DNA of 64,000 nucleotides from Candidatus Babelota bacterium. Its GTDB lineage: Bacteria; Babelota; Babeliae; Babelales; JACPOV01. Below the pieces are notes generated by a model. That model did not search any database, was not told the DNA's origin, and saw nothing but the letters and a program-made list of their open reading frames with translations. This document shows positions 4,318-60,977 of this stretch, in pieces; positions within the stretch are counted from its first letter, which is position 1; each line of letters opens with the position of its first letter. The position numbers and the translations under genes were made by a program. Location of the stretch: the NCBI GenBank assembly GCA_022707425.1, contig JAKJAQ010000002.1:29868-93867 (forward strand), read 5' to 3'.

Positions 4318-4424
4318 GCAATCCTTTACCCTTCAATCATAATTATTCTTTGTCTTGAAAAAAAATCTATTTTTCATACACTATGCACTAATTGTAGTAC
4401 AATTATTTTTAACAACACTATACC

Positions 4425-4613
4425 ATGAGAATTAATATGAAAAAATTATTTGTTATTGCGCTTGCACTAACTGCACTCACACTGCTCCCTGAATGTGGCA
4501 GAAAAAAATGTTGCAAGCAAGAATGCTCAACCGTAGTTGCACAAAATGAAAAACGTGTTTCTGGTCCATTAGCTGAAAAAGAAGCTGGTTGGTCAAAAGA
4601 AGATTACGCATAA
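4425..4613 (+). CDS. small putative lipoprotein
   Basis: Leader MKKLFVIALALTALTLLPEC has a lipobox-like L-L-P-E-C. The gene is followed directly by a strong terminator. The start could instead be the ATG at 4437. Confidence 0.45.
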   Translation: MRINMKKLFVIALALTALTLLPECGRKKCCKQECSTVVAQNEKRVSGPLAEKEAGWSKEDYA

Positions 4614-4647
4614 AAATGGGGAAGTTTTCCTTCCCCATTTTTTTTAC
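4614..4647. terminator. bidirectional rho-independent terminator
   Basis: Stem ATGGGGAAG / CTTCCCCAT with loop TTTTC. It is flanked by an A-run and a T-run and lies between convergent genes. Confidence 0.65.
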
Positions 4648-5096
4648 TTTGTTCGTTTATAAGTTCCCATCAATTCTGCTTTTTCAAGAATATGTCCTTT
4701 CATCGCTTTCATCAATTGATCCACTGTTGGTCGCGAAGGAAATGTCAGCATTGAATCTAATGCAAAAAGCTTAAAAAAATAACGATGTTCGCCTTTGGGA
4801 GGACATGGTCCATAAAATTGTGGTTTCCCCGAATCAGAAATACCTTCTTGTGCACTGGGCATAGATGAAACACGAACATTTTCTTCAAGTCGCCGCACCG
4901 TTGCTGGAATATTGTACACTAACCAATGCACCCATGTTTTTTTTGGGGCATCGGGGTCATCAACAATAAGCACAAAGCTTTTTGTTTCTTTTGGCACCCC
5001 TTCCCACACCAATTCAGGCGAAGCATCTTCACCATCACAGGTGAATTTACTGTTAATTGATTGACCATTCTTAAAAGCAGGACTCATTAATTTCAT
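4644..5096 (-). CDS. YbhB/YbcL (PEBP, Raf-kinase-inhibitor-like) family protein
   Basis: MKLMSPAFKNG aligns with the YbhB N-terminus as I recall it. DDPDAP and GEHRYFF motifs are present. GGAGG lies 7 nt upstream of the ATG at 5096. The longer TTG-initiated ORF to 5171 would add a hydrophobic leader. Confidence 0.8.
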   Translation of the reverse strand: MKLMSPAFKNGQSINSKFTCDGEDASPELVWEGVPKETKSFVLIVDDPDAPKKTWVHWLVYNIPATVRRLEENVRVSSMPSAQEGISDSGKPQFYGPCPPKGEHRYFFKLFALDSMLTFPSRPTVDQLMKAMKGHILEKAELMGTYKRTK

Positions 5097-5331
5097 GGCA
5101 TAACCTCCATTCATGAAAAAAAAACACATTGCCAAAATAAGTTTTGAAAAACAATAATTATTTTGATTCAACGCAACACCTCACATTTTTTCCAACCATT
5201 ATTTAAGTCACTGTAACACAACAATTTCATTAATTTCCATAATCTGCACCTACAGATGAGTTTTCTAGATTTTTATTACGTTGATTGCTACGCTACATTC
5301 ATTAATTATTAAAAAAATAAGGAGAGAGTTC

Positions 5332-6096
5332 ATGCTAAAAAAATTTGGTTGGGCCATTGCAGCACTTGTTGTCATAGTGGCTGTTATTTTATTTTATTCC
5401 TCAGGCCGTTTTAATCTTCAACAAGAAGTTGCTGAACAACAAAGTTGTCCCGTATTTCCTTCACGCACTGTAGAGCGCACACCGTTCCCCATAGCACCTT
5501 TATATGCAAAAAAAAACTTTAATTTAGCCCAAAAAATAAAAGGATTAAGCGAAAAGCAACTTGATGAACACAATACGTTGTATGAAGGTTACGTACAAAA
5601 AAGAAATGAAATTGCACAAAAATTGACCGAAGTTGATTTAAGCAATCAAAATAAAACCTATTCAGCGTACCGCGCACTTAAAATAGCCGAAACCTATGCC
5701 CTGAACGGTTCTTTACTCCATGAACTTTATTTTGAAAACATGAGCAATAGTGGTTCAGCAGTGGGCCCACAAATGCTACAACTCATTGAAAAATCGTTCG
5801 GTTCATTTGAGCAATTTAAAAATGATCTCATGGCAGCAGCACTGTGCTCTCACGGATGGGTATTAACCGCTTACAGCATCGATGATCATTTAATTCACAA
5901 TTATGTTCTTGAAGCACACAACCAAACAGTACCAGTACTTGCACTGCCATTATTGGTTTTGGATGTTTATGAACATGCGTACATGATCGATTTTGGCATC
6001 AAACGAGCTGCATACCTTGATGTGTTTTTCACACAAATTGATTGGAATGTGGTAGAAGAACGTATCAACCGTTGGGTCAATCCTCTTAATAAATAG
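5332..6096 (+). CDS. Fe/Mn superoxide dismutase family protein with N-terminal membrane anchor
   Basis: SD AAGGAG precedes the ATG at 5332. TM segment WAIAALVVIVAVILF. The four metal-ligand positions appear conserved (EH.., LLHELYF, DVYEHAY). Confidence 0.7.
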   Translation: MLKKFGWAIAALVVIVAVILFYSSGRFNLQQEVAEQQSCPVFPSRTVERTPFPIAPLYAKKNFNLAQKIKGLSEKQLDEHNTLYEGYVQKRNEIAQKLTEVDLSNQNKTYSAYRALKIAETYALNGSLLHELYFENMSNSGSAVGPQMLQLIEKSFGSFEQFKNDLMAAALCSHGWVLTAYSIDDHLIHNYVLEAHNQTVPVLALPLLVLDVYEHAYMIDFGIKRAAYLDVFFTQIDWNVVEERINRWVNPLNK

Positions 6097-6104
6097 CTGG
6101 GCAC

Positions 6105-7205
6105 ATGCAACAAACTAATATTCCACATGTATTTGTGCTCTATGATGGTGTTGAAAATTCAGTTTTTGAAAGTCAGGTCGTTGAGCCGTTAAAGGCGGAA
6201 AGCCGCACTTTTCCGCATAAAAAAATATATTTAATAAGTTTTGAACATAGACCGCAACAAATTCAATTAATTTTACCGTTCTGCACCGTACTACTATTGA
6301 AAAAATATCCTTTTCTTGGTCGATTGAGTTTGATTCTTGCAATTCGTGCACTGAGGAAAATAGTAAAACAATTACCCCCATTTTCTTTAACCGCTCGAGG
6401 CCCCATCGCGGGTTATATTAGTGTTGAAGCCGCAAAAAAAACTGTGTGCGCCAACATGATAATTCAAGCACGTGGTTTATTAACAGAAGAATATCGCTAT
6501 ACGCATGTTGAAAAAAAAGGAATCAAAAAATTAATTCATACGATTCGTGCGCGTTGGTATCAACAACTTGAACACTCTGCTTACAAACCAATTTCAGATA
6601 ATTATCACATCACGATCCAAGCAGTGAGTAGTGCACTCAGAAATTATTTGATCGCTGTTTTTCATGTGAATCCAAAAAGAATTACGGTCGCACATCACGA
6701 TGTGCCTCAATCAATTACACAAGAGCAAAAAAAAATATGGCGCACTGCAACTCGCGCTCTGCTAAATATTAATGAAAATGCATTTGTTTATTGCTACAAC
6801 GGTTCTGCTAAAAAATGGCAGTGCCCCGAACAAACAATTACCTTTTTTAAAAAAAAATCTACCATTCACAAAGATGCAATTTTACTGATTATCACCCATG
6901 AGCGCACACTATTCGAGCAACTAATAAAAAAACATGTTATAAATAGCTCTTCTTATCGAATTGTTTCTGTACCGCACGAAGAAATATTTAGTGTGCTAGC
7001 AGCAGCAGATTGTGGCATAATTTTGCGCGAACCGCACATTCTTAATTGGATCTCACGGCCAACAAAAGTGCTCGAATATCAAGCCCTCGATCTTGAAATT
7101 ATTCACAACAATACTATTGCGTTGCTTTCACCTAATTATCAAAGCAACAATCCAGCAATTAACGCAGAAAGTAAATTTGAGAGCGAACCACCAAGAACTG
7201 CATAA
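6105..7205 (+). CDS. hypothetical protein, possibly a GT-B (GT4-like) glycosyltransferase
   Basis: 366-aa ORF. Weak resemblance only: ITVAHHDV and a C-terminal RPTKVLEYQA like the E-x7-E region. The last 67 nt overlap the convergent nupC. Confidence 0.35.
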   Translation: MQQTNIPHVFVLYDGVENSVFESQVVEPLKAESRTFPHKKIYLISFEHRPQQIQLILPFCTVLLLKKYPFLGRLSLILAIRALRKIVKQLPPFSLTARGPIAGYISVEAAKKTVCANMIIQARGLLTEEYRYTHVEKKGIKKLIHTIRARWYQQLEHSAYKPISDNYHITIQAVSSALRNYLIAVFHVNPKRITVAHHDVPQSITQEQKKIWRTATRALLNINENAFVYCYNGSAKKWQCPEQTITFFKKKSTIHKDAILLIITHERTLFEQLIKKHVINSSSYRIVSVPHEEIFSVLAAADCGIILREPHILNWISRPTKVLEYQALDLEIIHNNTIALLSPNYQSNNPAINAESKFESEPPRTA

Positions 7206-8413
7206 AGTCCAAGTTGGCACAACCACGTTCGTTTTGCGGGCACGAGCGCTCCAATACCACCAATTTGAATACCAATGCATGAAAAATTAGAAAATCCACA
7301 TAATGCATAGGTCATAATTGAAGTTACACGCGCAGAAAGATCCATTTTTACCATTTCACTGTACGCAATCAGCTCATTAATAGTAACTTTAGTTCCTAAC
7401 AATTCACCTGCCCTGAGTGCATCATTTCCCGTAAATCCAAGCAGATAACCAAATGGTGCAAATAAACGAGAAAAAATATAGTTCAAACTTAATTGCGGTA
7501 GTTGTACTTTAATATCCGCTAAATAATAGTTGAGTGTTTGTGAAGTTGCACCAAGCAAATAGTTAACCAACGCGATCAATGAAAGAAATGAGATCAACAT
7601 CGCACCAACATTTAATGCAAGTTGCAGTCCATCGCTGGTTCCTACAGAAATTGCATCAAAAATAGTACCCGATGTTTGTTCACAAACAAGCGTTGTACTG
7701 CCACCAGTTTTTGTTTTTTCTTCTTCAGGTACTAATATTTTTGCAATTAAAATTGAACCTGGAATTGCCATAACACTTGCAGTAAGTAAATGCACCATTG
7801 GCACGCCTATTTCACCAAATACTGCCAAAATAGCACCACTCACCGTGCCCATGCCACTTACCATCACCACAAACAGTTCAGATTTTGTCATTGTGCTTAA
7901 ATAATTACGGATCAATAATGGCGCTTCTGTCTGACCCAAAAAACTATTAGCAACCGCGCATAAGGTTTCCGCACCGGAAGTACCTAACAACGGCTGCACA
8001 CCATACCCAATAACTGCCACAATGCGCTGTATGATTCCGTAATGAAATAAAATTGCCATAAGCGCACCAAAAAATATGATGATCGGTAATACTTTAATAG
8101 CAAAAATAAATCCCCATGGCAGGGTCGGGTTATTTAAATTACCAAATACGAAGGATGCGCCTGCATCAGCACAGTTATAAATCACAGTGACACCATCGGC
8201 GATTGATTGCACAATCCGTTGACCGACAGAAGTTCGCAACGTTATCCACCCAACTACCATTTGCAACAACAATGCATTGATCACCAATTTATAATTAATT
8301 GCACGACGATTTTTTGAAAATAAAAAAGCAATTGCAAGTACCACAAAAATACCAATAATATTCATGTAACGATTGTATTCAAGTAAATAGGCAAAAACCA
8401 TCGTGAACTCCAA
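7139..8413 (-). CDS. nupC: NupC/CNT family concentrative nucleoside transporter
   Basis: 424 aa, multi-TM. The N-terminus (IIGIFVVLAIAFLFSKNRRAINYKLV) and the SFLGQTEAPLL motif are typical of CNT transporters. Confidence 0.85.
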   Translation of the reverse strand: MEFTMVFAYLLEYNRYMNIIGIFVVLAIAFLFSKNRRAINYKLVINALLLQMVVGWITLRTSVGQRIVQSIADGVTVIYNCADAGASFVFGNLNNPTLPWGFIFAIKVLPIIIFFGALMAILFHYGIIQRIVAVIGYGVQPLLGTSGAETLCAVANSFLGQTEAPLLIRNYLSTMTKSELFVVMVSGMGTVSGAILAVFGEIGVPMVHLLTASVMAIPGSILIAKILVPEEEKTKTGGSTTLVCEQTSGTIFDAISVGTSDGLQLALNVGAMLISFLSLIALVNYLLGATSQTLNYYLADIKVQLPQLSLNYIFSRLFAPFGYLLGFTGNDALRAGELLGTKVTINELIAYSEMVKMDLSARVTSIMTYALCGFSNFSCIGIQIGGIGALVPAKRTWLCQLGLYAVLGGSLSNLLSALIAGLLL

Positions 8414-9850: not shown

Positions 9851-10507
9851 TTAAGCATTTCTCATTTTATTTACAATATCTTTAAGAGCCTCATCGTTAG
9901 GCTGAGCATTAACGAGACTTTCTGCATATCTGCGCGGTGAATAATTCAATAATGGATTTATCATATGCTGATCTGCACCATTGTTCAGTAACCAATCCAC
10001 GACGATCGGATTTCTATTATTAATCGCGGCCAAAAACGGTGAATTTAAACCACGTTGTTCATTCATATTAGCATTATTTTTTTTCAAAATTTCAGCCAAC
10101 GGAATATTATTTTTCTTAATTGCCTCAATGATTGGCGAAAAAAAGCTATTTTGTGCGTGCACATCGGCACCGAGTTTTAAGACAGTTTGTGTCATACTGA
10201 TATTTTGCTGACGCACAGTCATAACAAGCGGAGTTTGATTATCTTTTAATGCATTAATGTGTGCATTAGAAAATCCAACTTCAAGAATCACATCTTTAGC
10301 TTTGTTCTTCTCTAAAGCCTCAAACATTCTTGCAGTGGCTTCAGTTTCTTCTTCTCTGCTTGTTTTGAATTTTATTTGTTTAGCTTCTTCCTGAAGCGCT
10401 TCTCGTTTTCTTTTTAAGCGATTAATTTCATGGCGCTCAACGGACTCCATTGAAAAAAGAGTCGATCCGCATGTTACCAACATAATAACAGGTATAATAA
10501 ATTTCAT
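9851..10507 (-). CDS. ankyrin-repeat protein with signal-like leader
   Basis: GGAGG lies 5 nt upstream of the ATG at 10507. Leader MKFIIPVIMLVTCGSTLFS is followed by MES. ANK repeats are present (TPLVMTV..GADVHAQN, SPFLAAI..NGADQ). Confidence 0.8.
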   Translation of the reverse strand: MKFIIPVIMLVTCGSTLFSMESVERHEINRLKRKREALQEEAKQIKFKTSREEETEATARMFEALEKNKAKDVILEVGFSNAHINALKDNQTPLVMTVRQQNISMTQTVLKLGADVHAQNSFFSPIIEAIKKNNIPLAEILKKNNANMNEQRGLNSPFLAAINNRNPIVVDWLLNNGADQHMINPLLNYSPRRYAESLVNAQPNDEALKDIVNKMRNA

Positions 10508-11378: not shown

Positions 11379-12130
11379 TCAATTCCCTCTCTTTGTTGAT
11401 CAATCAAGTGAATAAACACTTCTTCCAAATTAGCTTTTTGATACAATTGCTTCAGATTGTGCGGTGTGTCAACTAGCACAATTTTGCCTTTATCCAAAAC
11501 GCATACCCGATCAGAAAGCACTTCCGCTTCATCAAGATAGTGGGTTGTTAAAATAATCGTCATGCCCCGATTTTTTAATGAAGCAATGAGGTGCCACAAA
11601 TTTCGCCGCACCTGCGGGTCAAGCGCAACGGTTGGTTCATCGAGAATTAAGATTTTCGGTTGATGCACCAGCGCACGCGCAATCAATAAACGTTGTTTAT
11701 AACCCCCCGATAAAATATCAGGCAAAGAATGCGCATACGGTGTAAGTTCAAATTCTTCTAAGAGTTGTTTGACTCGATTTTTAAGCATCGTTGATTCGAT
11801 ACCAAAGTAACGACCGCTAAAAATTAAATTTTCTTCAACCGTTAATCGCCGCTCAAAATTAGGTTTCTGAGGGCAAAAACCCAACACGCGACGAAATTGA
11901 ACTAAATTTTCATAAATTGATTTGCCCTTATACAACACATCACCACTTGATGCCGGCTTGAGTGTCGCGATAATTGATGAAAGCGTCGTCTTACCTGCGC
12001 CGTTAACACCCAAAAGTGTCATAATTTCGCCTTCGAATAAATCAAGCGAAACATCGTTGAGCGCATATACTTCTTTTCGGTCAATTATATATTTTTTATT
12101 AACATGAAAAAGCTGCAGTACTTTTTGCAT
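11375..12130 (-). CDS. ABC transporter ATP-binding protein
   Basis: Walker A GVNGAGKTT, signature LSGGYKQRL, Walker B ILILDEPT. Confidence 0.9.
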   Translation of the reverse strand: MQKVLQLFHVNKKYIIDRKEVYALNDVSLDLFEGEIMTLLGVNGAGKTTLSSIIATLKPASSGDVLYKGKSIYENLVQFRRVLGFCPQKPNFERRLTVEENLIFSGRYFGIESTMLKNRVKQLLEEFELTPYAHSLPDILSGGYKQRLLIARALVHQPKILILDEPTVALDPQVRRNLWHLIASLKNRGMTIILTTHYLDEAEVLSDRVCVLDKGKIVLVDTPHNLKQLYQKANLEEVFIHLIDQQREGIE

Positions 12131-12325
12131 ACGTACCCTTAGAAAAAATCAACGAAATTCATTTAAAAATTAAAAATAAGAAATAAGAGAAAAATAACAG
12201 AAAAAGATCATTGACACAGAGTCAATATATCTATTTTTCAGCGGGACAAATAATTGCGGCTTTCACGATACCGAAACCTTCAGATAATTGGGAATTGTAT
12301 TTTTATTATTTTAAATGAAATAATA

Positions 12326-12775
12326 TTATTCGTCAAAACTTTCTTTCGCCATTTTTTTTGCCAATTTTTGTATTGCATTTATTAAAGTACTATGTTGATT
12401 GTCAACGTGTTTTTTGCGATCATCAGCGCGCACAAACCCTTCATTACAATATTTACAAATATAATGTTTCTCTTTGGTGTGTACGCGCCTAATATGTTCA
12501 ATTCCATTATGCTTACGCTTGAATCTTTTTCCGCACCCTCCCCAAGTACATTTCCATGGGCGCTCATGTAATTGTTGATTCATAGCAGGTACTGTTGCCT
12601 GATTATTGTATAGCGATGATATATTTTCATCGGCAAAAACATTCAAAATAAAATGTTCGACGTTACTATCTACCGATGTCTCATAGTGTTGTTCAAATGC
12701 TTCTTCAGGATTGTTTTCTTCCATAGCTAAACAAAGAGTACATAATACCATGAACATTAATAATAATTTCTTCAT
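12326..12775 (-). CDS. tandem C2H2 zinc-finger protein with signal-like leader (eukaryote-like)
   Basis: Leader MKKLLLMFMVLCTLCLA is followed by MEE. Finger 1 is C-x4-C-x12-H-x4-H (CTWGGCGKRFKRKHNGIEHIRRVH). The linker TKEKHYIC resembles TGEKPYxC. Finger 2 is C-x2-C-x12-H-x4-H. Confidence 0.75.
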   Translation of the reverse strand: MKKLLLMFMVLCTLCLAMEENNPEEAFEQHYETSVDSNVEHFILNVFADENISSLYNNQATVPAMNQQLHERPWKCTWGGCGKRFKRKHNGIEHIRRVHTKEKHYICKYCNEGFVRADDRKKHVDNQHSTLINAIQKLAKKMAKESFDE

Positions 12776-12952
12776 TACCTTGTCCCCCAGCAAAATCCCT
12801 CTTTCATAATAACAAGAAGTCATGCTCGCTTGATATAGAGAGACGATAAAACATGCTCCATTGTTTTAAATTTAAAATTGCTTGCATCAGATAAATGGAC
12901 ACATTATCTTTTAAAATAGATTCACTCAGAAGATCGCTCAAAAAGGATTGTT

Positions 12953-13699
12953 ATGAATAAATACATCTATGCTTTATCGCTGTATTTATTGACACAATCA
13001 TTAGTAATGTTTTCATTTTTTGACGATCCAACTGCTCACTCACAAAGAGATTTTGTGATTGTTTCTCTTGGATGCGATTGTCATCCTGCCGCGTACGCAC
13101 GAAAACATGCATTACGTGATTTTGCTTTTCCCTTTGATTGGTGTCTCACGCCGTTTGAAACTATTTACCGTTTTATAAAAAAAGATTTCGATGGCTTCAT
13201 AAAAAAGAAACATTTGGTTCCTTCAGCGGAACGATATTTTAGTCGAAATTTAAAAAAATTTCTCACTCAACTATCATTAATTGGCGTAAGCACGTATAAA
13301 AGCTGGGTGGTTGATAAAAAAAATGACATAATTTTTGTGCATGATTTCCCTGATAACCAAATTCCTATCATTGCAAAATTGTACAAAGATATTGCCCAAA
13401 AGTACGAGCGACGCATCAAGCGATTTATGACATTGATGAATGGATCAAAACATGTTTATTTTATTCGCTATTTAGATGTATCAAAAAATCAAGCATTTGA
13501 TTTACATGCATTGCTGAAAACCAAATTTCCAAAATTATCTTACACCCTCATTGTAATAGGCAATACAGCGGAATTTAATACCTATTGGGGCATCAAATCA
13601 ATTAAAAATTATTTTTTACCCATTCACAATGAAGAATTTTGGGAACAATTGTTTAACGATATTATTCAAGGAAATCTAAATAGAATTTCTATATCATGA
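12953..13699 (+). CDS. hypothetical protein, possibly DUF1796-like (putative papain-like peptidase family)
   Basis: SD AAAGGA. The N-terminal motif VSLGCDCHPA...FPFDW resembles the DUF1796 signature as I recall it. Confidence 0.4.
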   Translation: MNKYIYALSLYLLTQSLVMFSFFDDPTAHSQRDFVIVSLGCDCHPAAYARKHALRDFAFPFDWCLTPFETIYRFIKKDFDGFIKKKHLVPSAERYFSRNLKKFLTQLSLIGVSTYKSWVVDKKNDIIFVHDFPDNQIPIIAKLYKDIAQKYERRIKRFMTLMNGSKHVYFIRYLDVSKNQAFDLHALLKTKFPKLSYTLIVIGNTAEFNTYWGIKSIKNYFLPIHNEEFWEQLFNDIIQGNLNRISIS

Positions 13700-14286
13700 A
13701 AAATATTCTTGCGCTTTTCACCTGTTTATTTTGTACCCAACAAGATCAAGTAGCACCCACAGCACCTTCAGTTGTTTTTTCTTCAACTGACCTGGCACCA
13801 TTAATTGCACAAGCGATAGTTCAAACAAAAAGCAGCCCACATTCTCCGTTAGAATTTTTAACAAACTTGAAAACATATTCATTAATTAACAAACATTGCC
13901 ATGCAACCATGTGTGATTTATTGTATGGAAATTCAAAACAATCGCTCGAATTCAACGAATTATTAATAACAAAAATCAGTAATCGATTTCCTCTGAGTCC
14001 ACATCCACGCTTTCTTGCAACAGCTTATATCATAACTCCTCACGCACGCAAACAGTTTGAAGGCATCTGCTTGCAACTTTCTTTTACTCAAACTTTACAT
14101 TCGCTTGCAGTTGAAATTGAATCTCGTTCATATATTCATGGATTACAAACGCTCTATGGCGGAGCAAATTTTCCAATCACTTTTACAAAAAAACAACTTC
14201 GATTTAGCGATAAACTACCGCGATTTCCACGACAGACATGCGCATTCTTAATAGAGTTATATAAAGATGCTGCTGGAGAAAAATAA
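13696..14286 (+). CDS. hypothetical protein with hydrophobic N-terminus
   Basis: ATGA overlap with the preceding gene's stop. 196 aa, no domain recognised. Confidence 0.5.
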   Translation: MKNILALFTCLFCTQQDQVAPTAPSVVFSSTDLAPLIAQAIVQTKSSPHSPLEFLTNLKTYSLINKHCHATMCDLLYGNSKQSLEFNELLITKISNRFPLSPHPRFLATAYIITPHARKQFEGICLQLSFTQTLHSLAVEIESRSYIHGLQTLYGGANFPITFTKKQLRFSDKLPRFPRQTCAFLIELYKDAAGEK

Positions 14287-14292
14287 ATTTTA

Positions 14293-15762
14293 TCACCATC
14301 CAAAACGCCACCTTGATTTTTTTTGATACGGATCAACAACCTTATGTTGATCGATCAACACCTTTTGCAACTCAATCGGTAATTGCTTAAATAGTTCTAA
14401 CTCAGAAGTTAATTTCACTTTATTTTGGTTAAAAAGATGGTGAATGAACAATCCCCTTCGCACACCAATATACTTTGTAAGATATTCATCATCCATTAAT
14501 TGCCAAAATCCCACCTTTTTATCAAATCCAACTGAAACTAATGAGTGATCATTAATAAATGAAACTGCCACTACTTTATCTGAATGACCCAAACAACTCA
14601 GTAATAATTCACCAGTCCCACTATTCCAAAGGCCAATCTTATAATCTGCACCCGCCGTTGCAACTAAATCTCCCGATTCATTAAATTTGGCATCCAATAC
14701 GCCAGCCTTATGCGCCTTTAATTGATGAATGATTTTTCCACTATGCGCATCCCAAATACCTGCTGTTCTATCATCACTTGCTGATACAATCCTATTACCA
14801 AACCGATCATAATTCAATGCGCGTATCCAATCGGTATGTTTTATTAATTGATGAACCAATTTTCCGTCAATGGTATTCCAGAGCAAAATCTTTCCGTCAT
14901 CAGAACCAGAAATCAATCGGTTTCCATCAGGTGAATAATTCACAACACGGACCATATCTTCGTGTCCAAAAAGTTGGAATTTCAAAGCATTGTTTTTCCA
15001 TAGTTTTACCATTCCATCAGCAGAACAGGTTGCATCGCCATCATGAGCAGGATGTGTTTGTACTGCAAAAATTACGTTGTCGTGTGCTTGAACATTTTCG
15101 GCAACAAGAGCGTTGTTTACAACATCAAATTGCGCACGTCTTCCTTCTTCAGTTACATAAATGATTTTTGATCCATCGGTAGTAAATTTTGCTGATCGTA
15201 CTTGACAACGCGAAGGAAAATATTGAATAATTTTTTTTACACTATCATAATAGCCGCTATTATCGAGTGTTATAAAAATAATTTTGTCACCATCATTATT
15301 ATAATGCAGCGCATTGATCGGACTATTTAACTGAATTTTGTTAATGGCATTCATTGATTGTGTATCAAAAAAAATTAAATCACCATTGTCATCACCGGTT
15401 ACAATATTCGTTTTATTTGGATGTACTGCAAGCGCATTTATTTCATCGGCATTACTATTGCAAACAGTAATTTTTTTTGGCAAACCAACTAATTTATCTT
15501 TAAGCAACAATGGCGCAAGCATTGGTGGTAAATCAGGATGATCCGTAATAAATCCTATTTTTTCATTTGAGAGTACCTGATCGAAAATATAGTTATATTC
15601 TCTTGCACACGCTTTTGCTGACAATTTCAATAATGATGGAATATCATTTTCTTTTTGGTTATTAATTGTCACTTCATTTATCGGAGGTACCACTAATTCT
15701 TTTTGTTCCATGCTTTGCAACGATCCAAAAAAAGTGACCAAAAAAAGCAAAAGTTTTTTCAT
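14293..15762 (-). CDS. WD40-repeat protein with signal-like leader
   Basis: Leader MKKLLLFLVTFFGSLQS is followed by MEQ. There are multiple WD repeats (SGSDDGKILLWN, SASDDRTAGIWD, TAGADYKIGLWN). The ATG at 15762 is preferred over the upstream TTG. Confidence 0.8.
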   Translation of the reverse strand: MKKLLLFLVTFFGSLQSMEQKELVVPPINEVTINNQKENDIPSLLKLSAKACAREYNYIFDQVLSNEKIGFITDHPDLPPMLAPLLLKDKLVGLPKKITVCNSNADEINALAVHPNKTNIVTGDDNGDLIFFDTQSMNAINKIQLNSPINALHYNNDGDKIIFITLDNSGYYDSVKKIIQYFPSRCQVRSAKFTTDGSKIIYVTEEGRRAQFDVVNNALVAENVQAHDNVIFAVQTHPAHDGDATCSADGMVKLWKNNALKFQLFGHEDMVRVVNYSPDGNRLISGSDDGKILLWNTIDGKLVHQLIKHTDWIRALNYDRFGNRIVSASDDRTAGIWDAHSGKIIHQLKAHKAGVLDAKFNESGDLVATAGADYKIGLWNSGTGELLLSCLGHSDKVVAVSFINDHSLVSVGFDKKVGFWQLMDDEYLTKYIGVRRGLFIHHLFNQNKVKLTSELELFKQLPIELQKVLIDQHKVVDPYQKKSRWRFGW

Positions 15763-15874: not shown

Positions 15875-16690
15875 TTATTTATAACGATGTGCGATTATTA
15901 ATCCTGCAATGTCTTTGTTAAAGCCACATCTGATTAATAATTTCGTCATTGTTATGAGTAATTCAGACCGTTTACTGATTAAAAAAGTACGCACTTTTTC
16001 TGTACCAATAGAAAGTGCGGTTTTTTTTGTTGTATTTTCAAGATCATACCGTGCGCCACAATACAACAACCATTTTACCATTTTATTAAATGACGTTTCT
16101 AGATGAGCTTGCTGATCCTTCTTAACTCGCGTCTTGAAATTAATATACCCATGTATAAGCTCATGGAGCGGCGTATTACCTTCACAATCCTGCATATTTG
16201 GGCCTGCACCTTTTCTGAGTACATTTTTAAATAGCGCAAATTGAATTGGGCTGCAAAATATTTCTTCATCTGCCGATACTATTGAATGCAAAGCAGTTCT
16301 GCCAAACGCATCGACACCATTAATATCCGCACCTCTGCTCAACAGTTCATTCACCAGAGATGGTTGTAGATAATAACAAGCTTTACAAAGTGGCAAATTT
16401 CCCTTGGTCGAAAGAAGATTGGGATCAATTTGCTGTTTGAGAAAAAAAGAAACAACGTTCCATTTACCTTTTTCTGTAGCATACGAAAGTGGCGTCATAC
16501 CCTTTTCTTGAAGAAATTGTTCATATAAATGATGCGCATTTGGTTGGTTGGCTCTGATTAATTGTTGAATATTTTTGTTCAGTGGATGTTTGTTTTTTAT
16601 AGCCAAAACTAATTCTTGCGAACTTGACATCGCACTGGTTACTTGAACAATAAAAACACACGATGCAATAATCGAAATAATTATGTTCAT
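15875..16690 (-). CDS. ankyrin-repeat protein with signal-like leader
   Basis: SD GAGGA. Leader ...VFIVQVTSA is followed by MSS. ANK repeats are present (GMTPLSYA, GADINGVDAFGRTALH, GNTPLHELI). Confidence 0.8.
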   Translation of the reverse strand: MNIIISIIASCVFIVQVTSAMSSSQELVLAIKNKHPLNKNIQQLIRANQPNAHHLYEQFLQEKGMTPLSYATEKGKWNVVSFFLKQQIDPNLLSTKGNLPLCKACYYLQPSLVNELLSRGADINGVDAFGRTALHSIVSADEEIFCSPIQFALFKNVLRKGAGPNMQDCEGNTPLHELIHGYINFKTRVKKDQQAHLETSFNKMVKWLLYCGARYDLENTTKKTALSIGTEKVRTFLISKRSELLITMTKLLIRCGFNKDIAGLIIAHRYK

Positions 16691-17335: not shown

Positions 17336-17433
17336 CCTTCTTATTTCTTTAGGAAAAACTAGGCATTTTTTTTTAATTCATATACCTTATCTGCATCATA
17401 AAAAAAGTTATGATTCAACAACAGGGAAGTACA

Positions 17434-19344
17434 ATGAAGCGTCATCATTTTTTTTATTTTTTTTGTATCATTTCTTTTCAATTTTCTTTTATCACCGCAC
17501 AAGAAATCAAGCATGAATGTGGACTTGCGTTAGTTCGTCTTCTCAAACCCCTCGAATTTTATCAAGAAAAGTACGGCGACATGATGTGGGGATTAAACAA
17601 AACTTGTTTATTGCTTGAAAAACAGCGAAACCGTGGCCAAGATGGTGCGGGAATCGCTGTTATAAAATTTGAAATGCCGTTCGGCAAACATTACCTTAAA
17701 CGTTTACGCTTTGCGCAAGATTATGCGCTTGAACATCTGCTCGCATTTATTTCACAAAAAATAAAAGAATTTCCTACACGCACAATAATCGATTCATCCG
17801 CGTTGAAAGAGCAATTTGACTATGCAGGTGAAGTTTATCTTGGTCATGTACGGTACGGCACCTATGCAGGTCGCGGGATTGAATTTTGTCAGCCATGTGT
17901 TCATAAAAATAGCATTCCGGCAAAATGTTTAACCATTGCAGGCAATTTCAATATGACCAACAGTGACGAGTTGAAAAATGAAATCACCCAATGGGGGGTC
18001 GCACCAACGAGCGTTTCTGATACACAACTTATTTTACATCAACTCAGTTATCTTCTAGATCAAGAAGATGAAAAAAAATCACACGACAATGAATCATGTA
18101 CTATTGCATCTATTATTTCACAAGCAGCACACAATTGGGATGGCGGCTATGTATTTGCAGGGATGTTAGGTAATGGTGATGCATTTGTTTGTCGCGATCC
18201 GTCGGCAATCAGACCTGGTTTTTATTTTTTGAATGACGAAGTTTTTGCAGTGGCTTCAGAACGCGCAGCATTGGCCAGCGTTTTTAATATTTCGTATGAA
18301 GATATTAAAGAAATTCCCGCCGCTCATGTTATTTCGGTAAAAAAAGATGGAACTATTTCAATAACACCGTTTATGAATCCATTTGTCGCACGCCAATGTG
18401 TGTTCGAACGAATTTATTTTAGTCGCGGTCATGATCCTGCAATTTGTCAAGAACGAAAAAACTTAGGTAAACAACTTGCCGTGCGCATATTTGAGGAATT
18501 GAATCAGGACATTTCTCATACTCTCTTTTCATTTATTCCAAACACCGCAGAAATTTCCTTTTTGGGATTGACCGAAGAGCTTTCGCAACTATCATTTTTT
18601 CATCATCGCCAATTACTCTTCACCAAATTTCATGATCAGATTTCTGCTCAAGAAATTGATCAGCTTATGAACAAAAAAATACGCGCAGCAAAAGTAATTT
18701 ATAAAGATCAAATGCTCCGCACATTTATTAGTCATGAATCAACTCGTTCTGACCTTGCTTGCAACGTCTATGATATTTCAAAAGGTATCGTAAATGACGA
18801 TGATACACTTGTTGTTATTGATGATTCGATTGTACGCGGTACAACACTTAAAAATTCAATCATGAAACAATTAATTCAATTGCAACCGGCGCACATTATC
18901 GTTCTCAGTGCTGCACCTATGATTTTATATCCTGACTGTTATGGCATAGATATGAGTCAAATTGGTCATCTTATTGCGTTCAAAGCTGCGGTAGAATTAA
19001 CGCACGAGCGCGGTAATGCAAAATTATTTGATGAAATTTATCAAGAATGCATTGCACTACAAAAAGAAAAACATATTCAACACAATCCACTCAAAAAAAT
19101 ATATGAACAATTTTCTCAAACAGAACTTGAACAAAAAATTGCGCACCTTGTTACTCCCAATGTAAAAAACTGGAACGGATCAATTCGTGTTTTGTTTCAA
19201 ACAATCAATGGACTTCATGCAGCAATACCAGATTTTACCGGAGATTGGTATTTTACCGGCAATTACCCGACACCAGGCGGTTATAGAGTGTTAATAAACA
19301 GTTACATTAATTGGTACAACGGCATCGAAAAAAGATCCTATTAA
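17434..19344 (+). CDS. purF: amidophosphoribosyltransferase (long form) with hydrophobic N-terminal leader or propeptide
   Basis: AGGGAAG lies 4 nt upstream of the ATG at 17434; an alternative ATG is at 17410. The leader MKRHHFFYFFCIISFQFSFITAQEIKHE precedes the catalytic Cys in CGLALVRL. NRGQDGAGIA and the PRTase loop VVIDDSIVRGTT are present. Confidence 0.85.
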   Translation: MKRHHFFYFFCIISFQFSFITAQEIKHECGLALVRLLKPLEFYQEKYGDMMWGLNKTCLLLEKQRNRGQDGAGIAVIKFEMPFGKHYLKRLRFAQDYALEHLLAFISQKIKEFPTRTIIDSSALKEQFDYAGEVYLGHVRYGTYAGRGIEFCQPCVHKNSIPAKCLTIAGNFNMTNSDELKNEITQWGVAPTSVSDTQLILHQLSYLLDQEDEKKSHDNESCTIASIISQAAHNWDGGYVFAGMLGNGDAFVCRDPSAIRPGFYFLNDEVFAVASERAALASVFNISYEDIKEIPAAHVISVKKDGTISITPFMNPFVARQCVFERIYFSRGHDPAICQERKNLGKQLAVRIFEELNQDISHTLFSFIPNTAEISFLGLTEELSQLSFFHHRQLLFTKFHDQISAQEIDQLMNKKIRAAKVIYKDQMLRTFISHESTRSDLACNVYDISKGIVNDDDTLVVIDDSIVRGTTLKNSIMKQLIQLQPAHIIVLSAAPMILYPDCYGIDMSQIGHLIAFKAAVELTHERGNAKLFDEIYQECIALQKEKHIQHNPLKKIYEQFSQTELEQKIAHLVTPNVKNWNGSIRVLFQTINGLHAAIPDFTGDWYFTGNYPTPGGYRVLINSYINWYNGIEKRSY

Positions 19345-19359: not shown

Positions 19360-21765
19360 GTGATTCTATTTATTATTTTATTTTCTTTAATGAGCACACT
19401 CAACGCAGAATCTGTCACGTATGAAGAAGCTGGAGTTAATATTACTGCGGGAAATCAGCTTATTAAAAATATCGCACCGGCAGTTCGCGCTACCGCGCGC
19501 GCGGGCACACAAGCACATCTTGGCGATTTCGCCGCTTTTTTTGATTTAAAAGAAACTGCTTATGAGGATCCACTGATTGTAAGCACTACTGATGGTGTTG
19601 GCACCAAATTAAAAATCGCACAACAAGTAAACAATCACGAATCAATTGGTTTTGATTTGGTTGCCATGAACGTGAATGATTTGATTGTTCATGGAGCAGA
19701 ACCTGTTTTTTTTCTTGATTATTTTGCGTGCGGAAAATTAGATGTTTCTCAAGCAACCGATGTTATCACTTCGATTGCGCGCGCATGCAAAGCGTGCAAT
19801 TGCGCGCTCATTGGCGGCGAAACTGCTGAAATGCCCAGCATGTATGATAATGATGAATATGATCTTGCTGGATTTGCAGTCGGACTCGTTGAACGAGCAA
19901 ATCGGTTACCAAAAAAAGATGAAATTAAAGCTGGCGATGTGGTTATCGGCATTGCTTCATCAGGATTACATTCAAATGGCTATTCATTGGTGCGTTATCT
20001 CATTGAAAAAAACAATGTTAATCTTTGCGCACAACCACCATTTGAATCATCGTACGATCATTTATACCAAGAATTATTACGACCGACAAAATTGTACATT
20101 AATTGTTTACTTCCATTAATTAAAGAACAAAAAATAAAAGCACTCGCGCACATTACCGGCGGCGGATTGCTTGAAAACATCCCGCGCGTTTTACCTGACG
20201 ATTGCTCCGTACAATTGGATATGAGCTGTTGGGAAATTAAACCAATTTTTTCATGGATTGCACGTTTAGGATCGATTCAAGAAAATGAAATGTTACGTAC
20301 GTTTAATTGTGGTATTGGCATGATGATTATTGCTGAGTATGAACATGCTGATGAAATTCTCAACCATCTGAAAACATATAACGAACAAGCTTGGATCATT
20401 GGAAGCGTCAAAAAAAGAAATGCACAACAGGCACAAGTAGTACTTGCGAATGCACATGAATTGTACCGCGAACATAACAACATGAACATTATGGTAATTG
20501 GCAGTGGTGCACGTGAACATGCAATCATTCACAAACTATTGCAGTCACCGTATATTAAAACAGTTTTTGCAGTTCCTGGAAATGGCGGCACTGCTATGCT
20601 TAATCAGGTAAAAAATGTTCCGCTTACACCTACTGATTTTGAACAATTAATCGCCTATGCACAACAACATAAAATCGATCTCACAATAGTTGGACCTGAA
20701 ACACCACTTGCGTTAGGAATCGTTGATGCATTCAACCGCGCAGGATTGAACTGTTTAGGACCAACAGCGCAAGCAGCGCAGATTGAATCGTCAAAAATAT
20801 TTGCAAAAGATTTTATGACGCGACACGCAATACCTACTGCGCATTATGCAATTTGCACTAACATTGAACAAGCTGAAAGTTACCTTGCACAACAAAACAA
20901 ATTTCCAATCGTGATAAAAGCCGATGGTTTAGCGCAAGGTAAAGGGGTCATTATTACTTTTACGCAGGAAGAAGCACTCCAAGCAGCACACGAAATGTTA
21001 AGCGGCAATGCCTTTGGCAATGCAGGAAAAAAAATTGTGATTGAAGAATTTTTGGAAGGACAAGAAGTAAGTTTTATCGTGCTTTCTGATGGAACACACT
21101 GCATCCCACTTGCAAGCGCACAAGATTACAAACGCAGAAATAATTATAATATGGGTCCCAATACGGGCGGCATGGGAGCGCATTCACCCGCACCAATTGT
21201 AACTCCTGCATTGCATGAACGCATCATGAATGAAATTATTCGTCCAACTTTGCAAGGAATGGCACACGAAGGAAAACCGTTTGTTGGTTTTTTATATGCA
21301 GGATTGATGATAACACCAGCAGGTGATCCGTATGTATTGGAATTTAATTGTCGATTAGGTGACCCTGAAACACAAGTTATTTTAGCGCGTATGCAAACCG
21401 ATTTGGCTACACTCAGCTTGGCAACGTTGCAAAAACGATTAGGAGAAATGAGCATTCACTGGAATGAGCAAAAAGCAATTAACGTTGTTGTTGCAGATGG
21501 CGATTATCCGTACACAACACAGTTGGGTCAACCGATTATTATTAATGCGCAACTTGTTTCTCCATGCACACATATTTTTCATGCGGGTACAAAACTTAAC
21601 AATCAACAATTAGAAACTGCAGGTGGAAGAATTTTATCAATAACTGCACTTGGAAATTCATTCAAACAAGCTCAAGAGAGAGCCTATAAACAGCTGCAAG
21701 CAATTGCAATTAATCATATGCATTACCGAACTGATATAGGCTCTCATGTTTCAATTAATGAGTGA
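19360..21765 (+). CDS. purM-purD: fused AIR synthetase (N-terminal) and GAR synthetase (C-terminal)
   Basis: One 801-aa ORF with no stop at the junction near nt 20482. The PurM part has YEEAGVNITAGN and DGVGTK. The PurD part starts MNIMVIGSGAREHAI and continues PGNGGTA. Start is either the GTG at 19360 (SD GAGAGG) or the ATG at 19390. Confidence 0.9.
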   Translation: MILFIILFSLMSTLNAESVTYEEAGVNITAGNQLIKNIAPAVRATARAGTQAHLGDFAAFFDLKETAYEDPLIVSTTDGVGTKLKIAQQVNNHESIGFDLVAMNVNDLIVHGAEPVFFLDYFACGKLDVSQATDVITSIARACKACNCALIGGETAEMPSMYDNDEYDLAGFAVGLVERANRLPKKDEIKAGDVVIGIASSGLHSNGYSLVRYLIEKNNVNLCAQPPFESSYDHLYQELLRPTKLYINCLLPLIKEQKIKALAHITGGGLLENIPRVLPDDCSVQLDMSCWEIKPIFSWIARLGSIQENEMLRTFNCGIGMMIIAEYEHADEILNHLKTYNEQAWIIGSVKKRNAQQAQVVLANAHELYREHNNMNIMVIGSGAREHAIIHKLLQSPYIKTVFAVPGNGGTAMLNQVKNVPLTPTDFEQLIAYAQQHKIDLTIVGPETPLALGIVDAFNRAGLNCLGPTAQAAQIESSKIFAKDFMTRHAIPTAHYAICTNIEQAESYLAQQNKFPIVIKADGLAQGKGVIITFTQEEALQAAHEMLSGNAFGNAGKKIVIEEFLEGQEVSFIVLSDGTHCIPLASAQDYKRRNNYNMGPNTGGMGAHSPAPIVTPALHERIMNEIIRPTLQGMAHEGKPFVGFLYAGLMITPAGDPYVLEFNCRLGDPETQVILARMQTDLATLSLATLQKRLGEMSIHWNEQKAINVVVADGDYPYTTQLGQPIIINAQLVSPCTHIFHAGTKLNNQQLETAGGRILSITALGNSFKQAQERAYKQLQAIAINHMHYRTDIGSHVSINE

Positions 21766-29615: not shown

Positions 29616-30929
29616 ATGTTGATTACGTTTATTTTAGCTTCATTGTGCAATTTTTTATGCATTAATGCCGATCAAATTGCAGAAGGCAAAACGAAAATAA
29701 TTCGTCGGTATGCAGCTGACCAAACAAAAGTAATTATTGAATCAAAAGATGACATTACCTCAGGCGATGGGTACAAAAAACATGATATAATGCGCGGTAA
29801 AAGTGCACTTGCAAATCAAACAACATGCAATGTGTTTCGTTTACTTAAACAATGCAATATACCAGTTGCATTTGATGAGCAAATTGATCACAATAAATTT
29901 TTAGCACCCCAGTGCACTATGATTCAGTTGGAAGTTGTCGTGCGGCGCGCTGCACACGGCTCATGCTTAAAACGTTATCCACATCTGCGTAAGGCTGATG
30001 TTTTTCCACAACTCATCGTTGAATTTTTTCTTAAAACAAGTGGTAGACAATGGCAAGGAAGTCCAATCCCAAAAGATGATCCATTCATGATTATCAACAA
30101 TAATAAAGCGGATCTTTATCTACCCGATGCACCATTGCATTCACAACAACCGTTCTTAACGCTTGATACCTTTCCCTGCGATCAGCAACCAGAACTGTAT
30201 GATCACATGGCGCTTATTGCAAAAAAAACATTTCTTATTCTAGAAAAAGCGTGGCAACTGCAAGGTGGCCAGTTAGTTGATTTTAAAGTTGAATTTGGTA
30301 TCGATGCACACGGCAATTTATTGCTTGCTGATGTTATCGACAACGATTCATGGCGTGTTTTAAAAAATGAAAACTATATCGACAAACAATTTTATCGCGA
30401 TGGTGGTGAGTTAGATGCGGTAACAAAATTGTATGAACAAGTACAATCGCTAACCGCACGTTTTTCATTGCCAACGCAACAATTAATTATTTGGCGTGGA
30501 TCGGAAAAAGATGTCGTAGAACCGTTGCTTGAACAATGGAAATCGGCTCTTTCATGGCTTGATGTAAAAATTGTAACGATTTCGATGCATAAAGAACCGG
30601 TCAAAGGATATCAAGAATTGCAAAAAGCTCTGCAAGAAATTCCCAATTCAGTTATTGTTGCATTCATTGGGCGCAGTAATGGTGCGGGACCAACATTGGC
30701 AGCACAATGCACGGTGCCCGTAATTACCGTACCGGTAAATTGGCAACAATTTCCTGAAGATGTGTGGTCATCATTGCGCGCACCAAGTGATGTTCCTGTC
30801 CTTACCATTCTTGAACCCAATAATGCACTATTGGCTGCATTACAAATATTGGCAATGAACAACCCAGCATTGTATGCACAATTGAGAATGAATCAAGAAA
30901 AACGATTAATCAATACTTCGATTAATTAA
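29616..30929 (+). CDS. purC-purE: bifunctional SAICAR synthetase / class II AIR carboxylase (PAICS-like fusion)
   Basis: 437 aa. [39 protein letters not shown] and [12 protein letters not shown] form the PurC half. GRSNGAGP and [10 protein letters not shown] form the class II PurE half. SD AAGGGA. The N-terminus [18 protein letters not shown] is hydrophobic. Confidence 0.9.
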   Translation: [437 protein letters not shown]

Positions 30930-30944
30930 ATATTTTCTTTAAAA

Positions 30945-30985
30945 AGATGTACGCACGAATTGAAAAAAGTGCGTACATCTTTTTT
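30945..30985. terminator. bidirectional rho-independent terminator
   Basis: 12-bp stem AGATGTACGCAC / GTGCGTACATCT with an A-run before and a T-run after. It lies between convergent purC-purE and the 30985 gene. Confidence 0.65.
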
Positions 30986-60814: not shown

Positions 60815-60977
60815 GAATAAAACCCCCATTTAAATAGCTCATTTATTGCTGCTTAATAACAGCTAAAAATTCACCTATACAACATAAGTGTAATTAATTT
60901 AAAAATCGGGTCAATTTGAAATATGCCCAAAACAAAGGGTTTTTTGGCAATAATGGCAGATAATAATTCACATAGAA

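Follow-up and report, generated by a model that had tools for sequence, protein, structure and literature searches.

A leader-bearing pair of classical C2H2 zinc fingers from an intracellular Dependentiae bacterium, a putative exported DNA-binding protein

What would an obligate intracellular bacterium do with a small protein that carries an export-type leader ahead of two zinc fingers of the eukaryotic kind? The question is raised by one minus-strand gene in a 64,000-nucleotide stretch of DNA from a Candidatus Babelota bacterium (assembly GCA_022707425.1, contig JAKJAQ010000002.1; the whole stretch is called the window here), whose product, the finger protein, is identical to OQA34520.1, deposited as 'Zinc finger, C2H2 type [Candidatus Dependentiae bacterium ADurb.Bin331]'. 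An earlier note on this DNA, which gave no strand, had described a leader, an acidic spacer and two classical C2H2 fingers, and this description was borne out by the sequence, by matches in Pfam and the Protein Data Bank (PDB), and by AlphaFold2 (AF2) modelling followed by Foldseek comparison. The finger protein appears to be a eukaryote-like domain protein of an intracellular bacterium, and we tentatively propose, with somewhat less than even confidence, that its gene encodes a putative small exported DNA-binding protein directed at the protist host.

The hidden Markov model (HMM) check that the earlier note had suggested gave 32.7 bits for Pfam zf-C2H2 (PF00096) against a gathering cut-off of 25.2, with an E value of 8.3e-8 and two matching stretches. 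The related zf-H2C2_2 model reached 24.5 bits (E=3.2e-5), below its cut-off of 40, and weak matches to zf-C2H2_2 and to DUF629-type non-DNA fingers all lay below cut-off as well. The ROS_MUCR family was absent from the 12 Pfam families listed at E<=10, in keeping with the earlier claim that the protein is not Ros/MucR-like; Ros/MucR proteins are also bacterial DNA-binding proteins with a Cys2His2-type zinc site, but they have a single site of other spacing within a larger globular domain, lack a leader and act in the cytoplasm. A phmmer search against PDB chains placed DNA-bound C2H2 proteins at the top, namely PRDM9 (2.9e-17), GLI (9e-15) and Zif268 (1e-13), together with YY1, TFIIIA and WT1. 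Among 1.84 billion representative proteins HMMER returned 22,715 matches at E<=1e-3, the best 150 of which, self excepted, are proteins of 464-3,051 aa with several to many fingers that align within residues ~9-143 and mostly over residues 56-143, where the fingers lie. The finger gene holds the only two real C2H2 motifs in the window, and in shuffled sequence 0.27 loose single motifs are expected per window; one other match to the loose pattern, at 12480..12551, was rejected as spurious, lying in an antisense frame. As far as sequence can tell, the finger protein is a genuine tandem pair of classical C2H2 fingers.

The anatomy of the two fingers (Table 1) resembles that of Zif268/EGR1, WT1, SP/KLF, GLI and TFIIIA in ligand spacing, in the conserved Phe at C+4 (F85 and F114), in the ERPW N-cap, in the seven-residue linker and in the predicted fold. 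The C-x4-C/H-x4-H pattern of the first finger and the motif of the second are as the earlier note had described them, and its finger coordinates, 12392..12550, are exact. Finger 1 begins with 'CTWGGCGKRF', like the C-x4-C fingers of SP/KLF, WT1 and GLI, and its helix presents R, H, N and E at positions −1, 2, 3 and 6. The ERPWKC ahead of it is the same N-cap as the ERPYAC of Zif268 and resembles the ERPY/EKPY segment that precedes first fingers and also ends canonical linkers. The helix of finger 2, RADDRKKH, places R, D, D and K at the same four positions and is similar to the helix of Zif268 finger 3, RSDERKRH, which also has Arg at position 4. The finger region is basic, with an isoelectric point (pI) of 9.8 and 16 Lys and Arg in 60 residues.

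Despite these likenesses, the finger protein differs from the eukaryotic C2H2 factors in that it is encoded on a bacterial chromosome behind a leader, has two fingers only, both of H-x4-H type, and allows neither a family nor a donor to be named. Its linker, which the earlier note had called TGEKP-like, does keep the seven residues and the Thr, Glu, Lys and aromatic positions of TGEKPY, though as TKEKHY it replaces Gly with Lys and Pro with His. The canonical Leu at helix position 4 is likewise replaced, by Gly91 in finger 1 (with Ile92 adjacent) and by Arg120 in finger 2. The missing Leu does not exclude the C2H2 fold, because Arg at this position occurs in functional fingers, Zif268 finger 3 being an example.

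To see the predicted fold, residues 66-134 were modelled with AF2 from a 22-sequence alignment of eukaryote-type finger pairs, which gave a predicted local distance difference test (pLDDT) score of 86.6 and the order strand-strand-helix twice, with finger 1 as a beta-beta-alpha unit at pLDDT ~90. The top Foldseek matches of this model were the DNA complexes of WT1, Zif268, KLF4, ZBTB7A and CTCF, which superposed with a root mean square deviation of 1.4-1.7 Å over 57-59 residues, a template modelling (TM) score of ~0.75 and a probability of 1.00. The two predicted fingers are inferred to bind DNA. A single-sequence AF2 model of the whole protein was discarded at pLDDT 42.

Table 1. Coordinates of the finger gene, its parts and the related features of the window
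Feature	Coordinates	Strand	Description and basis
Finger gene, coding sequence	12326..12775	minus	149 aa + stop; list of open reading frames (ORFs) and translation
Order of parts	12326..12775	minus	Leader, acidic spacer, two C2H2 fingers, C-terminal helix
Shine-Dalgarno (SD)-like element	12778..12788	minus	GGGGGACAAGG; 3-13 nt 5' of the ATG at 12775
Leader, residues 1-17	12725..12775	minus	MKK n-region, LLLMFMVLCTLCL h-region, Ala17 at −1; hydrophobicity scan
Acidic spacer, residues 18-69 (52 residues)	12569..12724	minus	10 Asp + Glu, 0 Lys + Arg, 16 bulky hydrophobics, pI 4.05
Finger-1 N-cap, H70-ERPWK75	12551..12568	minus	Aligned to E[KR]P[YF] of eukaryote-type finger pairs
Finger 1, C76-x4-C81-x12-H94-x4-H99	12479..12550	minus	CTWGGCGKRFKRKHNGIEHIRRVH; motif scan; best Pfam zf-C2H2 stretch 75-99
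Inter-finger linker, T100-KEKHYI106	12458..12478	minus	Canonical 7 residues; zf-H2C2_2 stretch 93-116
Finger 2, C107-x2-C110-x12-H123-x4-H128	12392..12457	minus	CKYCNEGFVRADDRKKHVDNQH; motif scan, Pfam, AF2, Foldseek
C-terminal tail, S129-E149 (21 residues)	12329..12391	minus	Predicted to extend the finger-2 helix as an amphipathic helix
Eight leader ORFs	803-1534, 9851-10507, 12326-12775, 14293-15762, 15875-16690, 21755-23641, 30985-31605, 32293-32892	minus	
Island genes	12953-13699(+), 13696-14286(+), 14293-15762(-), 15875-16690(-), 9851-10507(-)		

Where the protein begins decides whether it has a leader. The longest open reading frame, 12326..12823, would encode 165 aa, and the frame that starts at MKKLLL encodes 149 aa. 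We take the 149-aa protein as the real product, to judge from the sequence, because only the ATG at 12775 is preceded by an SD-like element; none was found before the ATG at 12823, before M9 or before M18, and both the 165-aa start and the internal start at M18 were rejected for this reason. An SD-like element stands before the first Met in 11 of the 13 window genes examined, including all eight genes with an MKK-type leader. A promoter and terminator scan of 12050..13050 found nothing convincing 5' of the finger gene.

The leader, assessed by eye and by hydropathy, has the anatomy of a type I signal peptide, with MKK, the hydrophobic LLLMFMVLCTLCL, and C(−3)-L-A(−1) followed by the acidic M-E-E, which suggests a cut between A17 and M18 and a mature protein of 132 aa and 15.6 kDa. 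A lipoprotein leader was rejected in the absence of a [LVI][ASTVI][GAS]C lipobox. The acidic spacer that follows gave no homologue in any search, where relatives sharing only the spacer would score below the listed HMMER matches. At the other end of the protein, the tail helix spans 51-68 of the 69-aa AF2 model and 117-148 of the low-confidence full-length model, with L131, I135, L138 and M142 on one face. Foldseek also matched the finger-region model to a Zif23-GCN4 chimera over 63 columns, which fits the shape of the tail helix and proves nothing; dimerisation through the C-terminal helix is a speculative possibility drawn from the model.

Leaders of this kind are stereotyped in the window. 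Eight minus-strand ORFs, the finger gene among them, begin with an MKK-type start, 12-16 hydrophobic residues, a small residue (Ala, Ser or Cys) and an internal Met, which is followed by Glu or Gln in seven of them (AMEE, SMEQ, CMES, SMES, SMQN) and by Ser in one (AMSS). In these ORFs the SD-like element stands before the first Met, and the internal Met has none. The carriers include two ankyrin proteins and a WD40 propeller, within 4 kb of the finger gene, and three ORFans, whereas the cytoplasmic housekeeping proteins RF-1, phosphoenolpyruvate (PEP) synthase and an ABC ATPase have no such leader. A like leader followed by [MFL]-[EQ] is found on C2H2 proteins of four loci from other genomes, L022, L050, L058 and L074, described below. 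The Met/Glu after the leader might serve as a motif for cleavage or sorting, or might mark the place where a leader was joined to an older start codon. In Chromulinavorax, a cultured member of the Dependentiae, signal peptides are predicted on 44% of coding sequences and on 78% of the ankyrin proteins, which are proposed host effectors, and outer-membrane vesicles appear early in infection; Sec together with vesicles has been proposed as the route (PMC6561590). By analogy, the distribution of the leader and the Chromulinavorax data support export of the finger protein. Elsewhere in the window, a 1,679-aa leader-bearing protein without a Pfam match is encoded at 53550-58589(-), and an AAA+ ATPase at 59282-60829(-) has a leader-like N-terminus (MGVLFMSHKKAVIALSLMLFHSICAED).

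The finger gene belongs to the genuine bacterial chromosome of an obligate intracellular lineage and is not contamination, because it has bacterial neighbours, a genome-like codon composition, conserved synteny in a second strain and an NCBI entry under the name Candidatus Dependentiae. It lies between an ABC-transporter operon and genes for DUF1796, ankyrin and WD40 proteins, and its wider surroundings are bacterial, with an ABC-transporter pair, the release factor RF-1, a nucleoside transporter, a PEP-utilising enzyme, superoxide dismutase, flavin reductase and a purine-synthesis cluster. The second strain, GCA_041907565.1, has the same gene order at 98.4% nucleotide identity, and its finger protein differs by two conservative substitutions outside the fingers (Leu to Val in the leader, Val to Ile in the spacer). 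A contig from a sequencing run is 100% identical at the finger locus. The same context is seen on contigs of 127 kb and 213 kb from independent assemblies and in the Sequence Read Archive (SRA) run. Three assemblies and one sequencing-run contig carry the gene, at least two distinct strains among them, and in each the frame is intact, as are the leader, the SD-like element, the two Phe residues and all eight ligands for zinc.

Contamination of the metagenome bin with eukaryotic DNA, or a chimeric assembly, would suit a domain class that is overwhelmingly eukaryotic, and in other bins several short contigs that matched our scan for linked fingers (below) do look contaminated. Here, however, the gene stands amid bacterial housekeeping genes within 64 kb, its GC content at third codon positions (GC3) of 0.28 falls inside the 0.23-0.39 of its neighbours, and it has a bacterial SD-like element and no introns. 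The synteny in the independent assemblies effectively refutes this explanation, whose probability we put close to nil.

Around the finger gene we also observed a small island of host-interaction-type genes (Table 1), which encode two ankyrin-repeat proteins, a WD40 propeller, a papain-like peptidase of the DUF1796 type and an ORFan with a leader. The GC content of the island, 0.325-0.344, is slightly below the ~0.38 found elsewhere in the window. Among the eukaryotic interaction modules that intracellular bacteria borrow are the ankyrin, WD40 and F-box domains.

The earlier note had treated tandem linked fingers as a eukaryotic hallmark without a bacterial counterpart, a view that is now outdated. 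We scanned one genome per bacterial or archaeal species with a DNA pattern for H-TGEKP-[YF]-x-C-x2-C and found at least 120 loci in genome assemblies. Some of the matches lie on short contigs and are possibly contamination, but many lie on large contigs, including those of Endozoicomonadaceae (1.0-1.6 Mb), Ca. Endonucleobacter (1.5 Mb), Kistimonas, Sororendozoicomonas, Cardinium (a complete chromosome) and Pseudomonas. A review of the Endozoicomonadaceae describes Kistimonas as enriched in zinc-finger proteins (PMC12491435). At least six of the matched assemblies are labelled Dependentiae, TM6, Babelota or Babeliales (L050, L058, L074, L084, L092 and L113), and two unclassified low-GC metagenome-assembled genomes (MAGs) with the same leader style, L022 (643-kb contig) and L090 (1.37-Mb chromosome), are probable further members. 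Tandem linked C2H2 fingers, as identified by sequence pattern, are rare in bacteria, yet not unique to this gene.

The finger proteins of host-associated bacteria in other phyla share tandem TGEKP-linked fingers on Mb-size contigs, while their similarity to the finger protein is generic (<=42 bits). Most of those in Endozoicomonadaceae start right at the first finger, without a leader. In Ca. Endonucleobacter, an intranuclear mussel parasite (L011, L028 and L118; 1.5-Mb contig), several paralogues of 350-455 aa combine a hydrophobic N-terminus with 3-7 C-terminal C2H2 fingers, and the finger proteins on the Cardinium chromosome (L076) have lipobox-like leaders (...CLIYGCGK). Three Pseudomonas species (L026 3267-6026(+), L045 and L111) encode ~910-aa proteins with an RHS repeat-associated core, TIGR03696 (aa 562-641 in L026), which carry 5-6 canonical C2H2 fingers as C-terminal cargo, at the place where Rhs and TccC proteins carry delivered toxin domains. 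No literature joining C2H2 with Rhs or TccC was found among the top matches, and none joining Endonucleobacter with zinc fingers was found.

In the Dependentiae the architecture recurs as a leader, an acidic spacer, a basic patch and 2-12 fingers, sometimes in tandem paralogues. At L074 (Ca. Babeliales MAG Tobar13.5m-G55, 2546-7263(+)) six tandem paralogues with 5-9 canonical fingers adjoin ruvC; their leaders, MKKLCLILIGLCSSLSA-LEN or MNKIKKYLLFTMSLFCSLSA-FEN, are followed by acidic Trp/Leu-rich spacers (EEDEELDLWLTEE). L050 has the leader ...GQLNG-MET, an acidic spacer, KKRKR and five fingers, and L022 (MAG MFD09206.bin.2.34) has the basic patch KRQKK. L058 combines the leader MKKLVLSFLVVFGSLYS-FEE with an acidic block, KKTVKVKKK and exactly two fingers. 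Its orthologues are 74-83% identical, with the leader nearly invariant and the acidic block EDDDIDW fully invariant, and the finger scaffold, the greater part of the helix residues and the basic patch are conserved as well.

The arrays of L074 and L022 form tandem clusters of 5-6 paralogues, in each of which a leader and an acidic spacer rich in Trp and Leu precede 5-12 canonical fingers with TGEKP linkers. Across their 72 fingers the Cys, Phe, Leu4 and His positions are invariant and the TGEKP linker nearly so, and Leu4 is nearly invariant across 95 pooled Dependentiae fingers. By contrast, entropy at helix positions −1, 2, 3 and 6 is 2.6 bits, against 0.7-1.0 bits elsewhere. As read from these alignments, this pattern is the signature expected for evolving DNA specificities, as in rapidly evolving eukaryotic arrays. 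No paper joining Dependentiae with C2H2 was found in the literature searched, and the one paper containing both Dependentiae and 'zinc finger' is unrelated.

Compared with these Dependentiae arrays (L074, L058, L050, L084, L092 and L113, probably also L022 and L090), the finger protein belongs to the same phylum with the same low GC content and shares the MKK-type leader followed by [MFL]-[EQ] (here CLA-MEEN), the linked fingers and, with many of them, an acidic spacer at the same position. L058 is also alike in having exactly two fingers, the second with H-x4-H. Unlike several of them, however, the finger protein lacks a basic patch, a canonical TGEKP linker and Leu4. Common descent is not supported, no sequence affinity being found beyond the generic finger, and the finger protein appears to be a minimal, divergent, lineage-restricted analogue of the leader-bearing Dependentiae finger proteins. 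The recurrence of the leader-and-finger design in the phylum strengthens the effector idea.

Was the finger gene acquired from a eukaryote, as the earlier note had supposed? For the domain class this is plausible, but the sequence points to no particular donor. Among eukaryote-type arrays the best two-finger matches score ~41 bits at 35-46% identity, the best bacterial match, from Sororendozoicomonas, scores 41.8 bits, and the best score against an array of the probable Dependentiae MAG L022 is 31 bits. Because the best eukaryote-type and bacterial matches are equally weak, neither a eukaryotic donor nor a Dependentiae-internal or other bacterial origin can be assigned from sequence comparison. 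Any transfer from a eukaryote would be old and fully ameliorated, because the GC3 of the gene equals that of the genome.

How might such a protein work? Translation would start at the ATG at 12775 behind the SD-like element, as read from the sequence, and the unfolded chain would pass through Sec by means of its MKK-hydrophobic leader, which the leader anatomy suggests is cut after Ala17. The mature protein might then leave the cell, for example by type II secretion or in outer-membrane vesicles. The fingers, with four Cys and four His, would take up zinc and fold only in the reducing host cytosol; we place folding there because eight free ligands would fare badly in the oxidising periplasm. 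A protein this small could enter the nucleus without a nuclear localisation signal (NLS), and KRFKRK within finger 1, the only NLS-like basic run in the protein, may help. The fingers, whose fold is indicated by HMM and model, would dock in the major groove and read ~6 bp, and a Zif268-type recognition code would, as a weak guess, translate the helices R-H-N-E and R-D-D-K into a GCG-NAG-like site. Speculatively, the acidic, hydrophobic-rich segment could act as an activation or protein-contact (docking) region, and the C-terminal amphipathic helix may pair two molecules.

Several observations weigh against this host-directed reading and bring other explanations with them. The AF2 model is confirmatory rather than independent, because its alignment was made of eukaryote-type finger pairs, and it partly restates the template family. 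Two fingers would give little sequence specificity. No secretion route across the outer membrane or the host vacuole is visible in the window beyond the leader. Moreover, two of the three public gene calls begin at M9, yielding a 141-aa protein that has lost its leader, and only one begins at M1.

The leader itself is not specific to effectors in this genome, and it cannot mark an effector alone, because leaders of the same type stand on purine-synthesis enzymes: PurH (21755-23641(-)), a PurF-like amidotransferase (17410-19344(+)) and a PurC-PurE fusion (29616-30929(+)). PurH, with the leader MKKRLLLLISFFSLNGFC-MESE, is homologous to the ordinary cytoplasmic enzyme from ~10 residues past the internal Met onwards; the PurF-like protein has MKRHHFFYFFCIISFQFSFITAQEIKHE ahead of its catalytic Cys; and the fusion has 20 hydrophobic residues ahead of the SAICAR-synthetase domain. 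The cluster is an observation of its own and unusual in a phylum whose biosynthetic pathways have been described as incomplete. It contains a PurM-PurD fusion of AIR synthase and GAR synthetase (19390-21765(+)), and the fusion at 29616-30929(+) joins SAICAR synthetase to AIR carboxylase in the same order as animal PAICS. Such purine-gene fusions are typical of eukaryotes, and the cluster may for that reason be of eukaryotic origin.

Both the M9 gene calls and the leaders on enzymes expected in the cytoplasm would suit a cytoplasmic regulator of the bacterium's own genes, made from M9 or with an export signal that does not work, and the Ros/MucR proteins illustrate that bacteria use a C2H2-like fold in this way. 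We consider this decidedly unlikely, given that the SD-like element stands at M1 and not at M9, that the leader anatomy is common to eight window genes and to the finger proteins of other Dependentiae, that there is no Ros/MucR similarity, and that a 52-residue acidic segment would be atypical of bacterial regulators.

If the protein is exported, its fingers might still bind RNA or a host protein in the cytoplasm, or the protein might act on the surface of the bacterium or inside the vacuole lumen. Binding to RNA and to proteins, besides DNA, is well established for C2H2 fingers. Gly and Pro, which cap the helix when DNA is bound, are missing from the linker here, the core Leu is absent from both fingers, and the weak zf-C2H2_2 and DUF629-type matches, though below cut-off, point the same way. 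No basic NLS-like patch was found before finger 1, unlike in several other Dependentiae finger proteins such as those of L058, L050 and L022. Set against this, the best matches, in sequence as in fold, are without exception DNA-bound fingers; finger 2 resembles Zif268 finger 3 and retains Arg(−1) together with Asp(2), a combination typically found where guanine is recognised; and the finger region is strongly basic. In the surface or lumen variant, a free-cysteine zinc finger would hardly work in an oxidising periplasm or lumen. We judge this alternative unlikely.

The substitutions in linker and helix are also what a decaying or neutrally drifting remnant of a longer array might show, its frame still open and its function no longer selected. 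Only two fingers are left, the linker is degenerate, Leu is missing at helix position 4 of both, and the ERPWKC before finger 1 resembles the tail of a former linker. The search for relatives fits as well. A word-indexed search of 5.8 billion proteins recovered only the protein's own cluster, with no relative beyond near-identical strains; a peptide-pattern search of GTDB genomes and JGI metagenomes found no related locus; and no close relative stood among the best 150 of the 22,715 HMMER matches. Three candidate relatives from IMG/VR were rejected as chance AMNQQLHE matches in an antisense frame without a C2H2 motif. The homologue search recommended in the earlier note did reveal its nearest matches, yet these are multi-finger proteins aligned over the fingers alone, and orthologues are confined to strains ~98% identical. 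Between the strains, two changes are nonsynonymous and none is synonymous, too few to demonstrate purifying selection.

Against decay, the frame, zinc ligands, Phe residues, leader and SD-like element are intact in all assemblies carrying the gene, and the two substitutions, each of them conservative, spare the fingers. Functional fingers, for example those of Zif268, can also have ERPY-type N-caps and Arg at position 4, and two-finger leader proteins are kept at 74-83% identity in another TM6 lineage (L058). On balance a remnant seems to us improbable, to about the same degree as an RNA- or protein-binding role, and the exported, host-directed DNA-binding protein remains the reading that we tentatively prefer.

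For the logic of that reading there are two independent precedents. One is the C2H2 cargo behind the Rhs core of the Pseudomonas proteins described above. The other comes from the fungal pathogen Magnaporthe oryzae, in which MoHTR2 is a validated host-nuclear effector of 110 aa with a signal peptide and a C2H2 domain (PMC12488382). MoHTR1 and MoHTR2 differ from the finger protein in using secretion of the endoplasmic reticulum type and in having a demonstrated function, and there is no homology outside the finger. The proposed logic, in which a modular DNA-reading array with an acidic segment acts on host transcription, is also that of the transcription activator-like (TAL) effectors of Xanthomonas and Ralstonia. 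TAL effectors are built of 33-35-residue repeats, reach the host through type III secretion and have an activation domain at the C-terminus as well as defined NLSs. The finger protein uses zinc fingers instead, and TAL repeats, type III delivery, NLSs and an activation domain are absent or not seen here. No characterised bacterial effector using a classical tandem C2H2 DNA-reading module was found in the literature searched.

Going further, Dependentiae, and independently some other host-associated bacteria, may deploy exported C2H2 'designer' transcription factors of the eukaryotic type that reprogram the genes of their protist hosts and would be zinc-finger equivalents of the TAL effectors, an idea that we regard as rather doubtful at present. 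Such factors may consist of a leader, an acidic activation-like segment, an NLS-like patch and an array that grows by tandem duplication and diversifies at its base contacts; the window gene may be a minimal two-finger member that dimerises via its C-terminal helix. The leader-bearing, diversifying Dependentiae arrays, of which no description was found in the literature searched, are more interesting than the single gene, which is less striking as a divergent two-finger form, confined to one narrow lineage, whose domain is already annotated automatically in GenBank. If the finger protein and the Dependentiae arrays do reach the host nucleus, they would join the TAL effectors as a second class of programmable DNA-binding effectors from bacteria, one that evolved independently, and would offer a way into the question of how the Dependentiae, which have hardly been studied, control their protist hosts.

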